This document shows positions 4,443 to 45,446 of a DNA stretch of 64,000 bases, piece by piece. Within the stretch, counting starts at the first letter, position 1. Each line of letters starts with the position of its first letter. The stretch lies in assembly GCA_033664045.1 (NCBI GenBank), contig GCA_033664045.1_3674.1, one strand, 5' to 3'. Position numbers and translations under genes: made by a program. The DNA comes from a phage. Below the pieces are notes generated by a model, which saw only the letters and a list, made by a program, of their open reading frames with translations, did no database searches and was not told the DNA's origin.

Positions 4443-5903
4443 TTACTTAGCGTACTCGATTAATTCCACAGTTTTCCCAAAGCTAGGGATATAATTTTTA
4501 TTATACCCTTCGGTGAGAACCCATAAAGTATCGTACTTTTTCCACTTGTTGTCAACAGCCTTTTGTTCAAAGTTATGCTCAAAGTATAGGTCGGTCAGGA
4601 CGATGACATCTTTTGCATTTGGTATGTTGGCATCCAGATACTCGAACACGCAAGCAGCTGTTGTGCCCCATGTTGAGTGGACCTCATAGTTGATCATCTC
4701 GTCTATGTTGCCGCGAGTATATACTTTAACCTCTCCGACTTCAGTTGACCAACAGAACATTGTAACCTTAAACTCTTTATACAGATTGCACAATCCGGTG
4801 ATTTCATTGAACATTTTCTTTAAAGTTCTTTGAGAGATCGAGCCAGAAACGTCTAAAGCTACCACAATATCTATGGTGTTTTCCGGATTACGACCAGGAA
4901 CAATAACGTGCTGGTTCTTGTTTATAGCCCCAACTTTTCGCATTGTGCTGGTCAAAGACCCAGATCGGCGACCAGGTTTTCTGTAGGTCAGTTCAGCCTT
5001 TCGTTTAGACAACATGCGTTGCTTAATGATGTCTATATAGTTGATTACAGGCTTGCCTCTGTTCTTGACAAACTCACGCACCGCCTCAGGGCAACGGCCT
5101 CCGGACGCTTGCATTGCTGCTTCCAGCATGTCACCAGAGTCTTGCATGGCCTGATCTTTATCAGATTGGCTGATTACAGGTTGTGGCTGATCATACCCCA
5201 TAGCCTTTCCAAGATCATCACTGGTACCACCGTTCCCACTCATGTGATCATCTGTTTGTCGCTTATCTCCTTGAGAGTTCTCACCTTTACCGCTCTTATT
5301 TTTACCGTTATTCTGATCTCTTTGCTTATCAAGAACTGCATAGACGTTCTCAGCAATCCATCCATGAAACCTCATGTCGCAGTAGCAGCTGGCTAAGAAA
5401 CCAAAAGGCTTACCTTTCACGAACGTAGTGCTTTTCCCCTTCGGGAAGAAAACACAAGGAGGCTTGCTAAAGTCAACCACAAGTCCTGTGTTGATAACGT
5501 GATCACAAGCAATATTGAACAGTTCCGGCTCAAAGCTTTTACCACGGACCAGGTGATCACAGATAATATGCCCCACCTCATGCGACAGAAGAAAGGCCAC
5601 CTCTTTCACAGATTTTGGGGAATAGAAAACTTCAGCCATCTCAAACTGCTCGTTAGTTAGAGAGGCCTTAAGAATAGCCTTGCGTTCATCAGCCAACCCC
5701 ATAATGAACTCAGGACTGTAATAGATACGTTTATGGTCGGTTGCCATGGTAGAGCACCATGTGTGGTTCTCTACGAACTGCAACCCTGACAGTAGTGTGC
5801 CATAAAACGGCAGCTTTTCAAGAAGATACATACGTGCAGCCTGCAACATTCTCAGGGCATCATCTTTCTGTGAGGCAATGATTTCTGAACTTCTGCTATC
5901 CAT
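4443..5903 (-). CDS. Metallopeptidase-like (HExxH) plus von Willebrand factor A domain protein
   Basis: HEVGHIICDH (HExxH) in the N-terminal half; DIVVALDVSGSIS MIDAS-like motif in the C-terminal half; start placed at ATG 5903 (track start 5924 is TTG) with GGAG site. Confidence 0.7.
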   Translation of the reverse strand: MDSRSSEIIASQKDDALRMLQAARMYLLEKLPFYGTLLSGLQFVENHTWCSTMATDHKRIYYSPEFIMGLADERKAILKASLTNEQFEMAEVFYSPKSVKEVAFLLSHEVGHIICDHLVRGKSFEPELFNIACDHVINTGLVVDFSKPPCVFFPKGKSTTFVKGKPFGFLASCYCDMRFHGWIAENVYAVLDKQRDQNNGKNKSGKGENSQGDKRQTDDHMSGNGGTSDDLGKAMGYDQPQPVISQSDKDQAMQDSGDMLEAAMQASGGRCPEAVREFVKNRGKPVINYIDIIKQRMLSKRKAELTYRKPGRRSGSLTSTMRKVGAINKNQHVIVPGRNPENTIDIVVALDVSGSISQRTLKKMFNEITGLCNLYKEFKVTMFCWSTEVGEVKVYTRGNIDEMINYEVHSTWGTTAACVFEYLDANIPNAKDVIVLTDLYFEHNFEQKAVDNKWKKYDTLWVLTEGYNKNYIPSFGKTVELIEYAK

Positions 5904-25690: not shown

Positions 25691-25719
25691 TTGACAACAG
25701 TGATAGGGCCTAATATAAT
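25691..25719 (+). promoter_or_regulatory. Sigma70 consensus promoter
   Basis: TTGACA (25691-25696), 17-bp spacer, TATAAT (25714-25719). Confidence 0.65.
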
Positions 25720-26967: not shown

Positions 26968-27050
26968 CAAATACCTATTGTAATTTACAGAAGGGGATGC
27001 TAAAATAGTGTCTCCTTCTATGTTGTTCAAATAAAATCGGAGATTCCATA

Positions 27051-27416
27051 ATGGAACAAATGAACGATCAAGCGTCGGTTGCGATGAACGAGCAAGAACA
27101 ACCTCAAGAATTTTTCTTAGGGTTAAGTAAAGATCAAGTGTCTCTTCTGCTAGTGCTTTCTTCTTTCATGGGAAGACTTCAGGAGCTCACACAACAGCCA
27201 GAGGCTGAACAATTATTCCAAGCTTTGCGTGAAGAAGAAAAATATCGTCGTTTGGACTATGCCTTAGGTTGGGTAGCTCAACAACGAGATATGCTAATGG
27301 CCCTCTCTGGGACTACAAGTTTTGCAATGGGCCTGTTGGCTCAAGTTCAGGACAAATTAATTCAAGCAGGGTTTGCACACACGGCAAACACTAACGAAGA
27401 ACAAGGAGATAAATAA
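27051..27416 (+). CDS. Hypothetical protein (Q/E-rich)
   Basis: Track ORF. Confidence 0.5.
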   Translation: MEQMNDQASVAMNEQEQPQEFFLGLSKDQVSLLLVLSSFMGRLQELTQQPEAEQLFQALREEEKYRRLDYALGWVAQQRDMLMALSGTTSFAMGLLAQVQDKLIQAGFAHTANTNEEQGDK

Positions 27417-28642
27417 TGAGCGTTATTCAACAATTCGCTAACCCAATGAATCCGCGTGAAACTGTTTTACTGGCTCACGGCATGATTAAACGTGTTAGCA
27501 TCAAGCCTATCAAAGGTGCTGATCCTACAACAGGTATTAAAACCACTGTGTGGCAAGGTAAGAAAATTGAATCCAGCCACACCATCTCTTTACTGATTTC
27601 TGAACTGGATTCCTCTGATAACCTGCTTCAAGGTGGTGAAGAAGTCTGGATCAGCATGGGTGATAAGCTGCTTAAACCAGGTCATCAAGACTCTGTCTCT
27701 GTTAAGATTGATGACAAGTGGGAAACCGTAACGCCAGGATGGATCGTAAATATCCCTTTGAAGGCAAACGAGCATAACGGTAAGACCTATTACAAGGGCT
27801 CACTGGCTAAGATGGTTAAGCTGGGTGCAGGAGAGGCTCCAGCAGCGACTCAGCAGCAAAAACAGCAACAAGGTGCACAATCACAAGGCCAGAAGCAGAA
27901 ACCTCAGCAGAATGCCAATCAGGACGTTTTACGCATCTATGGTGATGTGACTCAGATTGTTGGCAACGTGGTTACTGTTAATGACCACAAGATTGGCGAA
28001 GGTGCTATGGTTGTAACTGATGAGCAGCTTAAAGACCTGGTGGTAGGTGGTCGTGTTGCAGCCATTGTTGACAAAGACACCGGAAACATTATCAGTGGTT
28101 TCAAGGCCTATCCCCCTAAGGCAGAGAACGGCACTCAAGGCTCTGGTGGCAAGCGTAAATCCTCTTACGACCCTATCGGTGTGGAAACGGGGCATAGCAT
28201 CAATGCGTTGCAGATCATCCTGGATCGCGGGTTTAAGGTAGACGACCCGCTGGGCGTGGCTAAAACACTGCACGTAGTCACCATTGAGCTTAAGAAAGAG
28301 TATGCTCAAGCCACCAACCGAACTGAAGATGAAGTAGGTGCCAGTGTCGGTAATGCGGTGTTGAACGCTTGTCGCCGTATTGACAAGAAAACGAAAGTTG
28401 ATGATTTTGCAGCGGCAATTACTGCAGAAGCAAAAGATGTCTTGACTAATCTGGCTGAACCGTTGTACGATTGGATCAAGAACGGTGCTGGGTCAACCGA
28501 CCATCAAGAACCTCAGGCTGCCAAACAGGAAGCAGCTCCACAGCAAAACACTGTAGACGCTCCTCCTGTAAATGATGAGGAAGATGACCCAATGGATCAG
28601 AATCCAGCACAGTACGCCTTTGATGATGACATCCCTTTTTAA
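27416..28642 (+). CDS. SSB-like ssDNA-binding protein candidate
   Basis: Ends …FDDDIPF, the same hexapeptide that ends E. coli SSB; Q-rich linker QQQKQQQGAQSQGQKQKPQQ; located beside polymerase and primase. Confidence 0.55.
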   Translation: MSVIQQFANPMNPRETVLLAHGMIKRVSIKPIKGADPTTGIKTTVWQGKKIESSHTISLLISELDSSDNLLQGGEEVWISMGDKLLKPGHQDSVSVKIDDKWETVTPGWIVNIPLKANEHNGKTYYKGSLAKMVKLGAGEAPAATQQQKQQQGAQSQGQKQKPQQNANQDVLRIYGDVTQIVGNVVTVNDHKIGEGAMVVTDEQLKDLVVGGRVAAIVDKDTGNIISGFKAYPPKAENGTQGSGGKRKSSYDPIGVETGHSINALQIILDRGFKVDDPLGVAKTLHVVTIELKKEYAQATNRTEDEVGASVGNAVLNACRRIDKKTKVDDFAAAITAEAKDVLTNLAEPLYDWIKNGAGSTDHQEPQAAKQEAAPQQNTVDAPPVNDEEDDPMDQNPAQYAFDDDIPF

Positions 28643-28657
28643 CAATTAGTTAACATA

Positions 28658-28686
28658 GCCCTGCCCGAAAGGGTGGGGCATTTTTG
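28658..28686 (+). terminator. Rho-independent terminator (copy 2 of the conserved hairpin)
   Basis: GCCCTGCCC-GAAA-GGGTGGGGC followed by ATTTTTG. Confidence 0.7.
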
Positions 28687-28704
28687 TATAAGGAGATCTG
28701 AAAA

Positions 28705-29121
28705 ATGACATTAGAAGATATCATTGTTAAACCTGAGAACTATGACCAATACAACCTGTCAACTCAATCTGTAGACCTCGGATGCGCCACAGTCAGTGCA
28801 TGGCTGGTTAACGGAAAAGAGCTTGACGAGTGCCTGGAAGCACACATGTCGGTGAATAAATTTCTTGATGAAAATACCCACTGGCTAGAGGGTGCAGGAG
28901 TATATGCTTCATGGTTGGAGAGTATGGGATTCGACTACCAATCTGAAGAGGGGTGGTGGAGCTATTTAGCTATCTGCCCAGAGACGCTGCAATGCTTCAT
29001 GAAATATTCTGAAGATTTGGAGTACCGGGCGGTGGTTGATAGTGCCATTGCCCGTTATAGCCGTAAACCTTTTTCCCACGACATTAAAACTGTGGAAGAA
29101 TTTGTTGAAGTTTTCTGTTGA
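28705..29121 (+). CDS. Hypothetical protein
   Basis: AAGGAGA site. Confidence 0.5.
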   Translation: MTLEDIIVKPENYDQYNLSTQSVDLGCATVSAWLVNGKELDECLEAHMSVNKFLDENTHWLEGAGVYASWLESMGFDYQSEEGWWSYLAICPETLQCFMKYSEDLEYRAVVDSAIARYSRKPFSHDIKTVEEFVEVFC

Positions 29122-29217
29122 CACAGGTTGAAAGGTGTGCAATTATAACTTCATATAACGGGAGGACGCGATGAACGAAGAAAACTGGGATGTATAACTA
29201 ACAGGAGGCCACTGCCC

Positions 29218-29415
29218 ATGATTTATCGAATCCGTGTAAGAGAAGATGCACCAGGCTGTTACTTTGACTGGCGTGGGTGGTGGTTTCTCCACCCAATGGA
29301 TGGACTCACAGATAGAATGCTGGATGCTGCCCTTTATACAGATATCGACATAGAATATAATCTCTATCTGAAGGACGGTATAGATAACGGCCTGTTTGAA
29401 GCAATTCCTGTATAA
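29218..29415 (+). CDS. Hypothetical protein
   Basis: AGGAGG site. Confidence 0.45.
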   Translation: MIYRIRVREDAPGCYFDWRGWWFLHPMDGLTDRMLDAALYTDIDIEYNLYLKDGIDNGLFEAIPV

Positions 29416-29483
29416 GAGACTGTGATAGCCATGTTTTATGATCTCCCTGTAGCACCACCCCCTGTTGAACCCGGAGAACTAAG

Positions 29484-29909
29484 ATGATCTATGAAATGCC
29501 AAAACTGATTCGCGACGATGCCCAAAACGCTCACACCATTATTATGGGCAAGCGCATGGATATTATTTGTCATAAAGATTTCTGGGAAGGGAGTTACTTC
29601 ACAGAATATTTTGGTAAACTGGATAATGGTCTGCTGATCCAGTTCTACACCGATGCGGAAAACAACATTCACTGGGAGTTCGAAACTGAAGATATCCATA
29701 AACTTTTCACCTTCCTAGGTATTAAGGTTGAGGCCAAGTTCGAAGAAGGTGAGTGCGACGATTGTGGATTCTACGAGGTAACAGATTTCTATCTCCCAAG
29801 TGGTGAGAACCTTTACTATGAAAGCCACTTCGGCAACTCAAATATGCCACAAGGTTGGGATGAGTTTTTTGAAATTGCGGAAGAGGAGCTGGCATACCGT
29901 GATTATTGA
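29484..29909 (+). CDS. Hypothetical acidic protein
   Basis: Track ORF. Confidence 0.5.
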   Translation: MIYEMPKLIRDDAQNAHTIIMGKRMDIICHKDFWEGSYFTEYFGKLDNGLLIQFYTDAENNIHWEFETEDIHKLFTFLGIKVEAKFEEGECDDCGFYEVTDFYLPSGENLYYESHFGNSNMPQGWDEFFEIAEEELAYRDY

Positions 29910-30357
29910 TACTGTAGAGGGAGATCTAATCTCCATTTTCAAGAAAGGGTCAGGCCACATGATCCACGGTTGTAACTGCTTTCACACAATGGGTGCAGGT
30001 ATAGCGAAAGATATTGCCCGTGAGTTCCCTCAAGCACTGGCAGCCGACAAAGAGACTGCCTATGGTAATCTAGACAAGCTGGGTATGTTTTCTTGTTGGG
30101 AGCATTTTGCCAAGAACAGGGTTGTATATGGGATCAACCTGTATACCCAGTTCTACCCAGGGCCCAATGCTGAATACTTCTCAATCATGAAAGGTTTTGA
30201 GCGAGTCAACGAGGTATTCAAAGGTGTGTCATTGCCGTTCTACATCCCTAAGATCGGGTGCGGCATAGGCGGTTTGAAGTGGGAGCACGTGGAAGATGTC
30301 ATTAATCTTGCAACCACGGATATTGATGTGGTTGTAGTAGAGTACAAAAAGTGTTGA
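29899..30357 (+). CDS. Macro domain protein, TARG1/DarG-like (ADP-ribose processing)
   Basis: HGCNCFHTMGAGIAKDI and YIPKIGCGIGGLKWEHV match the TARG1 pattern (CxxxMGAGIA … PRIGCGLDRLxWExV); GTG start at 29899 with AAGAGGAG site. Confidence 0.75.
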   Translation: MIIDTVEGDLISIFKKGSGHMIHGCNCFHTMGAGIAKDIAREFPQALAADKETAYGNLDKLGMFSCWEHFAKNRVVYGINLYTQFYPGPNAEYFSIMKGFERVNEVFKGVSLPFYIPKIGCGIGGLKWEHVEDVINLATTDIDVVVVEYKKC

Positions 30358-30382
30358 CGACCATCTTCTGAGGTGATATATT
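30354..30382 (+). promoter_or_regulatory. Sigma70-like promoter
   Basis: TTGACG, 17-bp spacer, TATATT. Confidence 0.5.
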
Positions 30383-30411
30383 CTCCACAACGACTAAGAG
30401 AGGAGAGCGCT

Positions 30412-30582
30412 GTGGAGACTAAAATCTTAATTCTTGCTGTGGTAGATACAACCGAAGGAGCTATATTCGAATCTGCAGGAGGGTATTTCTATCTACCATA
30501 CGGAAAAAGAACTTCCGAGCCAAGTAAAGATTCAATCCTCAAAGTGTTCCCGTGTGCTTTCTGGCTGGAGATTTTGGTATAA
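30412..30582 (+). CDS. Small hypothetical protein
   Basis: GTG start after AGAGGAGAG site, downstream of the promoter. Confidence 0.3.
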   Translation: METKILILAVVDTTEGAIFESAGGYFYLPYGKRTSEPSKDSILKVFPCAFWLEILV

Positions 30583-30608
30583 GATTGCATAGGATTTGAG
30601 AGAGAATT

Positions 30609-30803
30609 ATGAGAAACAAGAGAGAGCTTTACTCTGGAGAGTGGATAAACGATCAACAGGTTGGAGAGGTAACCTGCTTCCGGTGTTTTACTCGGTACAA
30701 TCTTAAAACTGCACCAAAAAGTGTTCCAAAGACTGATGGTTATTACATAAAAGAACCTCATTGCCCAAAATGTAAATGCCGATTATACTGGAGTAACCTG
30801 TAA
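30609..30803 (+). CDS. Small zinc-ribbon protein
   Basis: CFRC…CPKCKC. Confidence 0.45.
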   Translation: MRNKRELYSGEWINDQQVGEVTCFRCFTRYNLKTAPKSVPKTDGYYIKEPHCPKCKCRLYWSNL

Positions 30804-30807
30804 AAGA

Positions 30808-30835
30808 TTGACATCTTAAAACTACAGTGTATAAT
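30808..30835 (+). promoter_or_regulatory. Sigma70 consensus promoter
   Basis: TTGACA, 16-bp spacer, TATAAT. Confidence 0.6.
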
Positions 30836-30866
30836 ATACGCACAGACTAACAGAGAGCGACGTATT

Positions 30867-31058
30867 ATGGTAATTTTTAACCGGGATGGCATCATAGTTA
30901 GACAGCACCCCTTCCTTGAATACTATCAAATTGAGCAATGGTGCTACGGAGATTGCAGTCACTCCTATGGGCAAAGTTGGGGATATCGCACAGTTTTTGA
31001 ATCAACAGACCTTGACAAAGTAAGACAGAAAGTTTTAGAACTTATTAACAACAAGTGA
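30867..31058 (+). CDS. Hypothetical protein
   Basis: Track ORF. Confidence 0.45.
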   Translation: MVIFNRDGIIVRQHPFLEYYQIEQWCYGDCSHSYGQSWGYRTVFESTDLDKVRQKVLELINNK

Positions 31059-31067
31059 GTATGACAT

Positions 31068-31400
31068 ATGGTAACATTAGAAAGACGTAAAGCTATCGCC
31101 GCAACACTGGCAGACATCTTTTGGGATTGCAACTTAAAAGATACCCGAAATTGTGGCGCATCTGTAGATGTATTATTCCCACGGCCCACCATTGTTGCAA
31201 TGGGAAACCTGTTAAACGTAGTGTACGGAGCATGGGACAAAGAAGGTGGATTCTATATCTGGCAACCTGACTACGGAGCCTGGAAAGAGGTAAGGGGTGC
31301 GGATGACTTTGGGCCTACAGTTGCTAAGATGGACGGCTGGGAAATTTATGTTGGAAACGACATGAAGCTGAAAGGCGAGATTGTTTACTGGCTACCTTAA
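31068..31400 (+). CDS. Hypothetical protein
   Basis: Track ORF. Confidence 0.5.
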   Translation: MVTLERRKAIAATLADIFWDCNLKDTRNCGASVDVLFPRPTIVAMGNLLNVVYGAWDKEGGFYIWQPDYGAWKEVRGADDFGPTVAKMDGWEIYVGNDMKLKGEIVYWLP

Positions 31401-31409
31401 GGGTAAAGT

Positions 31410-31655
31410 ATGAACACAGAGTGGACATCTGTAGACGGCGTTAAAAACATGCCTCTTGGAAAGTATATCGTAGCCATGGCTGATGAGGATGGCAATGTAG
31501 ATTTCGGAGCTTGCGAGGTTATTCTTGCAGGATCTGGTAACTATGTAGACAAAACCGGGATAATTAACGGTCAGTTCTACTTTGATCACAACCCTGTTGT
31601 AGCGTATATGGCTATGCCAGAGTTTAAGTTCCCAAAGGAGGGTGCTGATGTTTAA
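31410..31655 (+). CDS. Hypothetical protein
   Basis: Track ORF. Confidence 0.5.
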   Translation: MNTEWTSVDGVKNMPLGKYIVAMADEDGNVDFGACEVILAGSGNYVDKTGIINGQFYFDHNPVVAYMAMPEFKFPKEGADV

Positions 31656-31845
31656 GCTTAAATCCGCATGGAACATTGCTGTAGGTGACGAGATCCGTAT
31701 CCCCGGTGGGAAGACCATTATGAAGATATCTCGTATTGAGTACGAAGGTGACCGTGTATTCCACATCTTCGCAGAAGATGGTCGAGAAATTTATATACAG
31801 GCAGGTTCTCACATTTATATCCGTAAGAAAGGGGACGACAAATGA
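31642..31845 (+). CDS. Hypothetical protein
   Basis: Track ORF. Confidence 0.45.
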   Translation: MLMFKLKSAWNIAVGDEIRIPGGKTIMKISRIEYEGDRVFHIFAEDGREIYIQAGSHIYIRKKGDDK

Positions 31846-32171
31846 CAGAGATCATCATTTCAACTGCAGGGTATGTGTTCCTGACAATCATTGCACTGAC
31901 TATTTTGGTGACAGTGTATGGGTTTGTTATCCTTCCTATCCTTGAGACATTTAGTTTGTGTCGGTGTTGGAGAAAAGCTTACGGTCCACAACCATGGAAG
32001 GACTGGCCCCACCTGGTGCGCTTAGCGTTCTCTTATGCTTACGATCACTCCAGTAGTGCATGCATAACCGGATACCACGCCCACAACTGGAGCTGGGAAG
32101 GGTTGAGGAAATGGAATGTTACAAAGACCATACCTCTGCGCATGTACAAACCTAAAAACAAAGACAGCTGA
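31842..32171 (+). CDS. Membrane protein (N-terminal transmembrane helix)
   Basis: IISTAGYVFLTIIALTILVTVYGFVILPIL hydrophobic segment. Confidence 0.5.
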   Translation: MTEIIISTAGYVFLTIIALTILVTVYGFVILPILETFSLCRCWRKAYGPQPWKDWPHLVRLAFSYAYDHSSSACITGYHAHNWSWEGLRKWNVTKTIPLRMYKPKNKDS

Positions 32172-32480
32172 TACTTGAAAATTCCTGGCATATCAAGTAT
32201 AAGGGGGATTTCTAAAATGGATTTCCTCCTTTTGATATTTCACCGGGCTGGATATTTTAAAATTCTTAGAAAATCAGAAAATGGATCGAAAACTAAAATG
32301 GATTTTTCAGAGTAGGCGCGACAAGCTGAATAACTCATCCTATCGTTTGCACCATATTCCAGGCCACAATTACAGATTTCCAGCACATGCTCCCACCCTT
32401 CTACTAGAACTTCCTCCACTTACCCTTTACCTTCTATGGTAACAATCTAACCACTATCTTGAAGTTGCGGTGCAGCTTTC

Positions 32481-32665
32481 CAGGTACTCGATCTACTTTT
32501 CATTTCAGGGCTTGGATTTTCTGAAAATTTTTCTCGATAAATTTCTCAGTACTCGATCTGTTTTTCGTTTTCTGAATCGGATTTTCTGGAAATCGTTCCG
32601 GATCTCGACCTGAAATTTTTGGGGACGAAATCGATTTTTCGTTTTCAGAAATGGATTTTTAAAAT
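32481..32665. repeat. Iteron-like imperfect direct repeats (three copies of about 45 bp)
   Basis: CAGGTACTCGATCTACTTTTCATTTCAGGGCTTGGATTTTCTGAAAAT (32481), CAGTACTCGATCTGTTTTTCGTTTTCTGAATCGGATTTTCTGGAAAT (32546), partial copy at 32626. Confidence 0.6.
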
Positions 32666-32773
32666 TTGTATATGGAAATATTTTAGGAGGTATTATTTTA
32701 TATAGAATTGTCACGGTAGGTAATTAGCATGCTAACTAAATTTATGAAATGCGAAAAGTTCTCATTTAGAATT

Positions 32774-32792
32774 TTGAATGATAATCATTCTC
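32774..32792. promoter_or_regulatory. Fur-box-like site
   Basis: TTGAATGATAATCATTCTC, about 15/19 to the Fur consensus GATAATGATAATCATTATC. Confidence 0.4.
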
Positions 32793-32801
32793 GTTTGCAG
32801 A

Positions 32802-32830
32802 ATAACGGGCACCCCCGGTGATTGTCTCCC
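32802..32830. repeat. Left arm of a perfect 29-bp inverted repeat
   Basis: ATAACGGGCACCCCCGGTGATTGTCTCCC; exact reverse complement at 41615-41643; a degenerate direct copy at 32937-32965. Confidence 0.8.
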
Positions 32831-32893
32831 GGCCCCTACTGCCCCGGCTTGTTATTATAGTAACACACAGGACAAAGAAAGCAAGAAGTTTTT

Positions 32894-32929
32894 TGCATAA
32901 ATTTTTAGACGATAATGATAATCGTTCTC
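32894..32929 (+). promoter_or_regulatory. Candidate Fur-repressed promoter
   Basis: TTGCAT, 17-bp spacer, GATAAT; the -10 lies inside GATAATGATAATCGTTCTC (32911-32929), 17/19 to the Fur consensus. Confidence 0.45.
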
Positions 32930-33187
32930 ATTTTATGCAGCGCCCATCCCCGGTGGTTGTCTCCCTGTCACCGGTGCCTGCCGTCCTTTCGATATGTATA
33001 TTGTGCCACCTGGCGGGGCCGCTGTCAACACTTTTCAAAAAATTTTTCTAACCTGATGCGCTAACCGCTGCAACCTGGCGGGGCCAGCCTGGCAGGACCT
33101 AACTGACCAGGTAGGAGAGAATGAAGGCTTGCAAACCTGGTGGGCCTATGCTATAGGATAGGTAACAATTGAAGAGGAGGTACAAAA

Positions 33188-42954: not shown

Positions 42955-43570
42955 TTTGCTCTTTTCCTACCACAAACGGCCCAGCCTGGCAAGTGGAATA
43001 ATTGACTAGCCATCAATCCCGCACACTGTACAAATATACATATAAAATAGATATTGCATAACCTTTCATTGTGTGGTAGCAGGGCCATTTTTACACGTTT
43101 TTCCTTCCAAAATTGCACGTAATGCAGCTATTGCACAAAATTTAACCTGATGCACATCTTCAGTATACTGTCAACAATTAAAAACCCTTATAAGTCATAC
43201 ACTTACACAAACCAAAAAGCGTGTCCTACGTGAAAAATCGGGTGTAACTATAGCCGACAGATCTCAGAATCCACGTACGATCACCATTCTATAGCCTGCA
43301 AAGTATTTATTCCAACCACAGAATAACGGAATAGTCAATACCTGTATAAAATAATTATTCGTATAAACTGCATAACATAAACCCGCCCAGGTGTCAACAT
43401 TTTTCGTAAACAGTCCGAAATTGTCACGGTGAGTTATCATAAATAGAGAAATATTTAGTCGTCTAATGTTTACTGTACATTACTATACTGACTGGAATCA
43501 TTAGATGACTAAGAGAAAGATAAGAAATAATTAACAATGTAAGTATTTTACCTGCAACAATAAGGCAACT

Positions 43571-43803
43571 ATGCAAACGAATGTCATGGCGCGACGGAGT
43601 CGCGACATAATATAAAAGCAGTAACCATCACCCCCGTGATAGTTTGTCTGCAAACTATTAATCAGATCATAGTTGCCTTGTATTTAGTTAATCATGACAT
43701 AACAAGCAAGGCAACTATAGATCTTCTAATAGTTGCCCTGCTTTTATATTATGTCATCTATTGTAAATCAGTTAATTGTTTTCATGCAAACGAATGTCAT
43801 GGC
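43571..43803. repeat. 20-bp perfect direct repeat pair and ATAGTTGCC repeats
   Basis: ATGCAAACGAATGTCATGGC at 43571-43590 and 43784-43803; ATAGTTGCC / GGCAACTAT at 43564, 43669, 43710, 43729; palindrome AGTTTGTCTGCAAACT at 43641. Confidence 0.7.
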
Positions 43804-43830
43804 TTATCATTTTTGAGTAAATAGTTTGTT

Positions 43831-44030
43831 TGTAAACAATCTATACGTAAACAGTTAACTATGTAAACTATTAGATATGTAAACTATTGGTTATGTAGAC
43901 TATCAGGAATGTAAACAGTAAAGCGAGTGAATAGTGAGAGCGTAAACAGTCAGGCATGTCAATTATGTTTAATGTGCCCAGTATGTCACTATTGTGTCTA
44001 AAGTGTCATAGTATGTCACAGTATGTCAGA
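43831..44030. repeat. Arrays of short direct repeats
   Basis: Seven copies of TGTAAAC-like motif at about 15-bp spacing (43831-43950), then four to five copies of GTATGTCA (43955-44030). Confidence 0.7.
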
Positions 44031-45446
44031 CAAGTTTTTCTCCTCTTTGTCAAGTGCTGCATGAAAAATTTACAAACTGGTATGGTAGCATTTTTGCGGC
44101 CCTGTTTACATTCAGTAATGTATGTATAATCCTTGTTGTGTGGGCGTTTGGACGTCTAGACGGTTGGAAGTCTGCAGGTCAATATCTAATCTATTGGCTG
44201 CTAACTATATCCCACACAAATAGTAAGAAATATGATTGTTATATGCGTAAACAGTAACTCATGTTATCAATCCCTGTATGTATCGCCAGTGGTGCGCATA
44301 ATGGGTATTATGTTAAATTGCCCGTAATGATAACTATTCTCACAATGATAGGTATTCTCATTCACCCCCACAAGATAGGTTGCAAATGTTGTGCCACTGT
44401 GTGAACGGCCTCACCTATTAATTTGCCTCACTGCCTCGATATTTGAGAATTGTTATAAGAATGAGAAGTATTCCCATTCCGTCCGCCTGGCAGCACTCCA
44501 GTCGCTACGGCTCATAACAGGGCAGAACTGGGTCCATTCAGATATTTCTGGCTGGCTCTTCAGGTCTGTGTGGGAAAAGCCAACCTCTCCTGCGGCGGGG
44601 AGGGGGTCAATTAAAAAATTTACGTGGTATATGTAGCGCTGTTCAGGTAAGGCATGTATTATGGGATGAAATCCTCTTCAGGCAATGATATTTGTGGGTG
44701 TGATATTTGCTGGAAAGCCAGATATGACGGGACTCCCGGCGGGGCAGGGGTGGTACAGACAGGGAAAATATGGAGGATGTGGTTGGGTGAATTGATCAGA
44801 CAGGTAGAGTATGGAATATGTTACAAGTATGTTAAATATGAAGGGTGAATATCTGTAGGATTTGTGTGTAAAATCAAAGACTTAAGTAGTGTTGTGGTAT
44901 TTTCTATAAATAATTCAAGTTTAATAGGTAATATTTGTCTCTATCCACTTTGTGTGGTAAACAAATTCAGATGAGATTGGTTTACAAGTGTATACATAAT
45001 ATACAAATTAAAGATACAAGAAACCCCCCTCCCCCTTCGGCTACCATTCACCTTTTCCTCTGACTGGTACTTAAACACTTATTCAGACTCTTCAGGTTAT
45101 CACCCATATATCATATGGCAGTGACTGGTGTCCTCCGGCCCCTCTTTCGTCACCCGTCCGCTTCGCCATGCTAATGCCATAGCCAAATGTTCGGTTGTTC
45201 ACCCTGTTCACTCAGGTGTATCTCCATACCCCTTCAAACCGAAGAGAACAGAAAACCCGAATTACTCGGTAAAAGAAAAGAGAAGAACTTAATTTTATCA
45301 AGATAGGCAAGAATGTCAAGGCATGACTGCTCACTAAACAAGCAAACAGTCATGTGCGGTAGGTAAGTGATTGTGGTTGTAGGAAATTTAATTGAAAGAT
45401 GTGTTATAGGTGCTTCCAGCACTTTAGCCTGGCAGCTAATTGTGTG

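Follow-up and report, generated by a model that had tools for sequence, protein, structure and literature searches.

What does the small macrodomain gene at positions 29899-30357 (+ strand) of an rV5-like phage genome do for the virus that carries it? The gene lies in a 64,000-nucleotide stretch of DNA (contig GCA_033664045.1_3674.1 of GenBank assembly GCA_033664045.1; "the window" below) from an rV5-like Escherichia coli myovirus of the genus Vequintavirus, and over 27000-33000, the 6 kb surrounding the gene, the window shares 95-96% identity with several phages that include PDX, Murica and JES2013. An earlier examination of the letters and their open reading frames (here called the sequence-only reading) had seen in its product a stand-alone macrodomain of the TARG1/DarG fold that was plausibly directed against ADP-ribosylation of phage DNA or proteins. 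This central idea gains support from the predicted fold, the conserved loops, placement in one clade with the Tk.4 protein of phage T4 and the phenotype of T4 mutants, and we put at roughly 0.6 the probability that the protein is an AdfM-type, orphan-antitoxin-like enzyme that removes the ADP-ribose attached by the toxin DarT2 to thymidines in single-stranded phage DNA.

The gene has the extent that was first proposed for it, with a GTG start at 29899, a TGA stop at 30355-30357 and 152 codons, and a Shine-Dalgarno-like GAGGAG (29883-29888, + strand, read from the sequence) lies 10 nucleotides (nt) 5' of the start. The same 459-nt frame is used in all annotated relatives, and residues 2-8, which form the N-terminal beta-strand, reach a predicted local distance difference test (pLDDT) score of ~97 in the structural model, a value that disfavors a later ATG start; the same two observations leave a longer, mechanically called open reading frame (ORF) with a GTG at 29800 unsupported. 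The rV5 ortholog of the gene is gp204, annotated "tk.4" in the rV5 genome record since 2008, and the gene is conserved in about 110 Vequintavirus genomes; the label of the orthologs varies by record and includes 'tk.4: phosphatase', 'macro domain protein' and 'O-acetyl-ADP-ribose deacetylase'. It differs from its rV5 counterpart by 19 synonymous codons and one non-synonymous codon and from that of phage JLBYU08 by 22 synonymous and five non-synonymous codons; judged by these codons, it is under purifying selection.

By sequence and by modelled structure the protein is a stand-alone macrodomain of the ALC1-like/TARG1-like class. It matches the Pfam Macro family (PF01661) with 25.9 bits against a gathering score of 22 and PHROG 335 ('phosphatase') with an E value of 1.7e-59, and its sole PADLOC match and sole significant NCBIfam match are to the macro part of DarG (E 1e-12 and 7e-12). 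When a family profile built from 92 homologs was searched against the PDB, the matches were BT1257 (4e-15), SCO6735 (2e-14), DarG (1e-13), TARG1 (4e-13) and yeast Poa1p (4e-12); the Poa1p sequence used for comparison agrees with the Poa1p fragments shown in a match. The AlphaFold2 model has a mean pLDDT of 95.9 and a predicted template modelling score of 0.91, and a Foldseek search with it returned TARG1 first (template modelling (TM) score 0.75-0.81) and then Poa1p, DarG, BT1257 and SCO6735, all at probability 1.0. Thus the profile match and the structural resemblance to TARG1 and DarG that had been suggested as checks were both found, and the model together with the conserved MGAGIA and IGCGIGG motifs is that of the three-layer alpha/beta/alpha macro fold with two glycine-rich loops.

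Both signature blocks singled out by the sequence-only reading are present. The first, H23-G-C-N26-C-F-H-T-M-G-A-G-I-A36, is encoded at 29965-30006 (+ strand; the part from C27 is C-FHT-MGAGIA) and contains the first predicted ADP-ribose/phosphate-binding loop, MGAGIA; in alignments to SCO6735, TARG1 and DarG its H23 and N26 fall on SCO6735 His24 and Asn27. The second, I119-G-C-G122-I-G124-G-L-K-W-E-H-V131 (30253-30291, + strand), contains the predicted second phosphate-binding loop; G122 aligns with SCO6735 G128 and TARG1 G123, and G124 stands in place of TARG1 Asp125. Between them N80-L-Y-T-Q84 (30136-30150, + strand), identified from invariant columns, profile alignments and a motif table, is followed by the short loop FYPGPN, and its Gln84 aligns with TARG1 Lys84, DarG Lys80 and SCO6735 Gln85. 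Asp50 (30046-30048, + strand) is invariant in the phage Tk.4/Adpp family and is not found in TARG1, DarG or SCO6735. In the 92 homologs the invariant columns are G24, N26, C27, G34, A36, D50, N80, Y82, T83, Q84, P117, G120 and G122, with H23, C25 and M31-A33 nearly so, and homologs of 34-98% identity all keep the SCO6735-type active-site residues N26, Q84, G122 and H23 (invariant or nearly).

The aligned positions Gln84 and Gly124 rule out TARG1-like Lys/Asp catalysis, but is such a site compatible with removal of ADP-ribose? The sequence-only reading had named loss of the catalytic Lys/Asp equivalents, with no ADP-ribose binding, as grounds for giving the idea up. These residues are indeed lost, and the idea stands nevertheless, since a Gln is functional in SCO6735 and T4 Tk.4 carries the same Gln. 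SCO6735, which uses Gln85, strips DarT-installed ADP-ribose off thymidine in single-stranded DNA faster than DarG or TARG1 does and rescues cells from DarT, and the changes Q85A and N27S inactivate it (PMC9411070).

How close, then, is the protein to the characterized macrodomains? Human TARG1/OARD1 (PDB 4J5R/4J5S) is its top structural match and shares the MGAGIA and IGCG...L.WE.V blocks, but the identity is about 23-26% and the Lys84/Asp125 dyad is replaced by Gln84/Gly124. The SCO6735/BT1257 subclass (PDB 5E3B and 2FG1) gives the best PDB profile matches, has Gln in place of Lys and has the Asn27, His24 and Gly128 equivalents in common with the phage protein. This subclass is defined by a mobile loop five residues longer than that of DarG/TARG1, a DNA-contacting Lys89 and Lys34 (PMC9411070); the long loop, Lys34 and Lys89 are all absent from the phage protein, so membership in the subclass was rejected. 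It is about 24% identical, has Thr-Gln rather than Gly-Gln, carries the short loop QFYPGPN and has the family-specific Cys25, Cys27 and Asp50. It is not a true DarG either: it scores 45.2 bits against NF048014, whose equivalog cut-off is 250, covers profile positions 3-144 of 338 and is a single domain, whereas DarG has a C-terminal DarT-binding domain, and the DarG Lys is missing ('infpTK' aligns with 'nlyTQ'; K80 in the Taq protein). No darT gene is annotated near the macrodomain gene. The chimallivirus AdfM (PhiKZ gp104) and the DarG2 macrodomain (PDB 5M3E/5M3I), for which removal of DarT2 ADP-ribose from DNA has been demonstrated (PMC13309987), have the macro fold and the same proposed biological role, and PhiKZ gp104 is also a stand-alone phage protein; however, these belong to a separate Lys-type clade (N23/K78 in PhiKZ), and gp104 is only about 21% identical to the protein studied here (E 0.002).

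The phage relatives place the protein more precisely. A tblastn search of 50,697 phage records found homologs in 2,832 of them, from phages of many hosts. The nearest relative beyond Vequintavirus is a protein of Krischvirus JK32 (67.5% identity), whose gene sits at the canonical T-even tk.4 locus between vs and tk, and T4 Tk.4 itself matches over its full length with 38% identity (E 1e-42, 126-128 bits). In neighbor-joining trees (200 bootstraps) the Vequintavirus protein groups at 100% bootstrap with the JK32, T4 and RB69 Tk.4 proteins and with proteins of Providencia, Acinetobacter and Delftia phages; a Felixounavirus protein joins this clade in a second tree. Outside it lie the River4 (Vibrio phage) and Pakpunavirus IQPL proteins, both linked to NARP1 genes, and the Bas62 protein; the SCO6735/BT1257 branch comes next, TARG1 and DarG are likewise excluded, and DarG with the PhiKZ-type AdfM forms a separate Lys-type clade (100% bootstrap). 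Some phage homologs carry additional fused domains. The Felixounavirus homolog of phage pinkbiff (locus L007, 3995-4780) has a C-terminal extension of about 100 residues. The Bas62 protein, from a Justusliebigvirus (locus L013, 3722-4456), has an N-terminal extension of about 85 residues and adjoins a putative phosphoribosyltransferase gene; by BLASTP that phosphoribosyltransferase has no detectable homology to River4 Adps, and we therefore do not claim a NARP1 linkage for Bas62.

Two types of phage protein can be told apart in this set. Tk.4-type proteins have Thr-Gln followed by a short PG loop and, in the Vequintavirus protein and T4 Tk.4, an isoelectric point (pI) of about 5.9, whereas Adpp-type proteins have Gly-Gln followed by a Lys/Arg-rich loop that is 3-7 residues longer, and the River4 Adpp has a pI of 8.9. 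The Tk.4 signature, HGCNCFHTMG ... ADK ... N-x-Y-T-Q plus the short PG loop, is present in the Vequintavirus protein (motif table and invariant columns), which on every count compared is Tk.4-type by its sequence. Its likeness to T4 Tk.4/AdfM extends to its being stand-alone, to its size (about 152-155 residues) and to identical HGCNCFHTMG, ADK, NLYTQ-short-loop-PGPN and IGxGIG motifs, with the Krischvirus Tk.4 as a link between the two. They differ in that T4 belongs to the Straboviridae and the present phage to the Vequintavirinae, and in that the gene here lies 3' of genes for proteins resembling single-stranded DNA-binding protein (SSB) and overlaps an ORF for an acidic protein rather than vs.

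It is T4 that supplies the phenotype. In a transposon-sequencing study of T4, tk.4 alone came out as significantly conditionally essential on DarTG2; insertions in it are depleted on DarTG2 only, a clean T4 knockout is DarTG2-sensitive, and the gene was named adfM, for anti-DarT factor Macrodomain (bioRxiv 10.1101/2025.11.20.689424). Carried over to a Vequintavirus, this suggests the following course of events. In an E. coli host with DarTG2, infection would free the DarT2 toxin, which would ADP-ribosylate thymidines in single-stranded phage DNA and so block replication. The phage protein would use its two glycine-rich loops (MGAGIA and IGCGIGG) to grip the ADP-ribose and would hydrolyze the thymidine-ribose bond, so that ADP-ribose is freed and replication resumes. 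Catalysis would be Gln-centered and water-mediated in the manner of SCO6735, with Gln84 positioned by Asn26, close to His23 and the backbone of loop 1; DarT2 may in addition be inhibited directly by steric hindrance. The gene, fold, conserved site, Tk.4 clade membership and absence of NARP1 partner genes (from the window and from the JLBYU08 annotation over 1-131.9 kb) were observed in this analysis, and the substrate and phenotype proposed for the Vequintavirus protein would be those transferred from T4 Tk.4 and SCO6735.

Several points weigh against this AdfM-type assignment. The enzymatic activity of T4 Tk.4 was itself inferred by its authors, and the transposon library of Bas54, a member of the Vequintavirinae, in the same study was not challenged with DarTG2 (bioRxiv 10.1101/2025.11.20.689424); we found no DarTG2 tests on Vequintavirinae in the literature. 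The nearest enzymatically characterized homolog is the phage ADP-ribose-1''-phosphate (ADPR-1''P) phosphatase Adpp. The HxCNC, Asp50 and NxYxQ motifs are common to Tk.4-type and Adpp-type proteins, so the catalytic motifs cannot separate a DNA hydrolase from a phosphatase and failed as a discriminator of activity; the differences are only in the residue before the Gln, loop length, charge and gene context. The DNA-handling features of SCO6735 are missing (Lys34 is replaced by Ala33, and there is no extended Lys-containing mobile loop), the protein is mildly acidic (pI 5.9), and the trees are small (16-18 sequences).

Could the protein then be an ADPR-1''P phosphatase like Adpp or Poa1p? Such an enzyme would remove the phosphate from ADPR-1''P that arises from RNA-repair chemistry or from the RES-type NADases of the aRES defence, and would so help to replenish NAD+ or eliminate a toxic metabolite. 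In Vibrio phage Gary the Adpp gene lies between those for Adps and Namat, in an extended NARP1 operon, and its product does convert ADPR-1''P to ADP-ribose in vitro and so defeats aRES (bioRxiv 10.64898/2026.01.28.702374). The Vequintavirus protein belongs to the same PHROG-level family, shares the catalytic-site motifs and is 33% identical (65 bits) to River4 gp177, whose gene is part of an Adps-macro-Namat operon and which has 79% identity to the Gary Adpp; historically the annotation has read 'phosphatase / A1pp motif', Poa1p ranks near the top of both the sequence and the fold matches, and the phage IHGCNC resembles the IHSCNC of Poa1p. However, Adpp needs NARP1, with all three genes required, and its genes lie within or beside Adps/Namat operons. 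With the River4 proteins as queries, tblastn found no match to Adps or Namat at E<=1 in the window or in the relatives' loci, and neither is present in the annotation of the close relative JLBYU08 (positions 1-131.9 kb), so an Adpp function here would be without its pathway partners and a role in the NARP1 pathway (NARP1-AP) was rejected. The NARP1-linked macrodomains and the Bas62 homolog fall outside the Tk.4 clade and have Gly-Gln with the longer basic loop, the River4 Adpp is basic where the Vequintavirus protein is acidic, and it is a member of the Tk.4 clade, T4, that has the DarTG2 phenotype. We consider the phosphatase explanation unlikely.

Hydrolysis of some other ADP-ribose conjugate (Glu/Asp-linked protein, RNA, O-acetyl-ADP-ribose or an ADP-ribose-derived immune signal), as a counter to a TIR-type defence or to another ADP-ribosyltransferase of the host, we likewise regard as rather improbable. 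TARG1 and SCO6735 do act on both DNA and protein substrates (PMC9411070), some relatives are labelled O-acetyl-ADP-ribose deacetylase, the phage records with a homolog extend far beyond the phages known to have been tested on DarTG2, and the family's own invariants D50 and C25/C27 have yet to be given a role. Yet those annotations are automatic, tk.4 was the sole gene to score significantly on DarTG2 in the T4 screen, and no ADP-ribosyltransferase that the enzyme might balance is annotated in JLBYU08 over the 131.9 kb already mentioned. Least probable of all is a non-catalytic antitoxin mimic that neutralizes DarT2 mainly by binding the toxin or by shielding ADP-ribosylated sites. The canonical Lys/Asp residues are missing, AdfA and AdfB work by binding DarT, and the dead variants SCO6735 Q85A, DarG K80A and TARG1 K84A inhibit DarT in vitro, SCO6735 most strongly (PMC9411070); but the 152-residue protein has no counterpart of the DarG C-terminal DarT-binding domain, and the invariance of N26, Q84, G122 and H23 across so wide a range of homologs points to conserved catalysis.

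A bolder version of the enzymatic idea is that the short-loop Thr-Gln proteins of the Tk.4 type form a mechanistically distinct, phage-specialized class of ADP-ribosyl hydrolase, with substrates possibly broader than DarT2 products. The marks of this class would be the Thr-Gln short loop and the invariant His23, Cys25, Asn26, Cys27 and Asp50, an active site unlike the Lys/Asp dyad of TARG1, the Lys of DarG or the long-loop Gln of SCO6735; the acid/base that is missing might come from Asp50 or from the Cys pair, and the substrates might include both ADP-ribosylated thymidine in DNA and ADPR-1''P or another ADP-ribose conjugate. We regard this as doubtful; if it were true, one small enzyme present in about 5% of sequenced phages would disarm several NAD+-based defences.

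The AdfM-type assignment does not introduce a new kind of biology, since both the concept and the phenotype of the T4 ortholog are published, and the sequence-only reading was in this respect anticipated. Annotations of the gene as tk.4 or macro domain go back to the rV5 record, and macrodomain anti-DarT factors were reported in 2025-2026 from T4 and from an independent Lys-type lineage of chimalliviruses (PMC13309987). Should this assignment be correct, the Vequintavirus phages, in wide use as candidates for O157 typing and therapy, come equipped with an antidote to DarTG2, which would make their host range on E. coli with DarTG2 easier to predict. The comparison further indicates that the 'phosphatase' phage macrodomains of PHROG 335 include at least two types defined by context: a Tk.4/AdfM type (Thr-Gln, short loop, no NARP1 genes nearby) and an Adpp type (Gly-Gln, long basic loop, beside NARP1 genes). 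The chimallivirus Lys-type, DarG-like AdfM is a third type outside the PHROG 335 family, a separate lineage under the same name. The distinction between the first two offers a simple rule for re-annotation.

Is the neighboring upstream gene a partner of the macrodomain? It encodes a 141-residue protein (29484-29909, + strand) that is acidic (pI 4.27), as the sequence-only reading had it, and its TGA stop (29907-29909) overlaps the macrodomain start by 11 nt, which makes the proposed translational coupling plausible. The partnership that coupling might imply was rejected. The protein is found only in Vequintavirus, where its gene adjoins the macrodomain gene, and in Krischvirus, where it lies kilobases from tk.4; with the two genes neighbors in one genus and apart in the other, their overlap is not evidence of a functional link, and the coupling is a lineage-specific arrangement. 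The protein belongs to PHROG 8157, which carries no function, has no Pfam, NCBIfam or PADLOC match and has only three full-length homologs in a large protein database. Its AlphaFold2 model is poor (pLDDT 68), and Foldseek found no match to it at a TM score above 0.3. In its few homologs Cys29, Cys91 and Cys94 (ECDDCG) and His17/His115 are invariant, so a small metal site is possible.

The placement of the macrodomain gene in a "replication block" was loosely right. It lies about 1.3 kb 3' of SSB-like genes and a few kb 3' of DNA polymerase and primase genes, and a helicase gene is also upstream; these genes, including the two SSB-like genes, are all on the same strand as the macrodomain gene. 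Perfect matches (12/12) to the sigma-70 consensus (TTGACA, 16-17 nt, TATAAT) occur on the + strand at 25691-25719 and 30808-30835, with weaker promoter-like sites between them; all of these are consensus matches only. The site at 30808-30835 probably corresponds to P205, which the rV5 record annotates as a sigma-70-type promoter closely following the macrodomain gene, and the two perfect sites suggest early transcription of these gene blocks by host RNA polymerase. A terminator-like GC-rich hairpin followed by a T-run (28658-28679, + strand, from a consensus scan only) lies after an SSB-like gene and may mark the 5' limit of the macrodomain gene's transcription unit, although terminator-like sites were not enriched over shuffled sequences. 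No Rfam RNA elements were found between 27.0 and 33.5 kb.

Some further features of the region deserve mention. One of the SSB-like genes (27416-28642, + strand) encodes a 408-residue protein that is called 'putative SSB' in a relative and has a weak ssb-family match over residues 331-408 only; it ends in ...YAFDDDIPF. E. coli SSB has the same acidic tip, DDDIPF, at its C-terminus, where it recruits SSB-interacting proteins, and the phage protein may borrow this host interaction tail. At the junction of the SSB-like gene and the next ORF, rV5, JES2013, SophiaRose, navn and others have an endonuclease gene of ~640 bp (endo VII/HNH-like; 4660-5283 of locus L001 in rV5) that is absent from the window at ~28643-28704, which looks like a presence/absence polymorphism of a homing endonuclease. 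Over 27000-33000, sixteen GenBank records titled 'Campylobacter phage' (MG0656xx, with C. jejuni given as host) match E. coli rV5-like phages at about 95% identity, probably because the hosts were mislabelled or the lysates contained contaminants.

Farther along the window, 43570-44280 forms a large intergenic region that separates divergent gene blocks and has no Rfam match. It holds seven + strand copies of a word centered on GTAAAC, three of them at an exact 16-nt spacing (43847, 43863 and 43879), near-palindromic 20-mers at 43639 and 43821 (ATAGTTTGTCTGCAAACTAT and a variant), and an 18-nt perfect inverted repeat at 43604/43738. According to the HIDEN-SEQ preprint, transposon insertions are not tolerated in the corresponding ~2 kb of Bas54; 43570-44280 is a candidate origin or regulatory hub.

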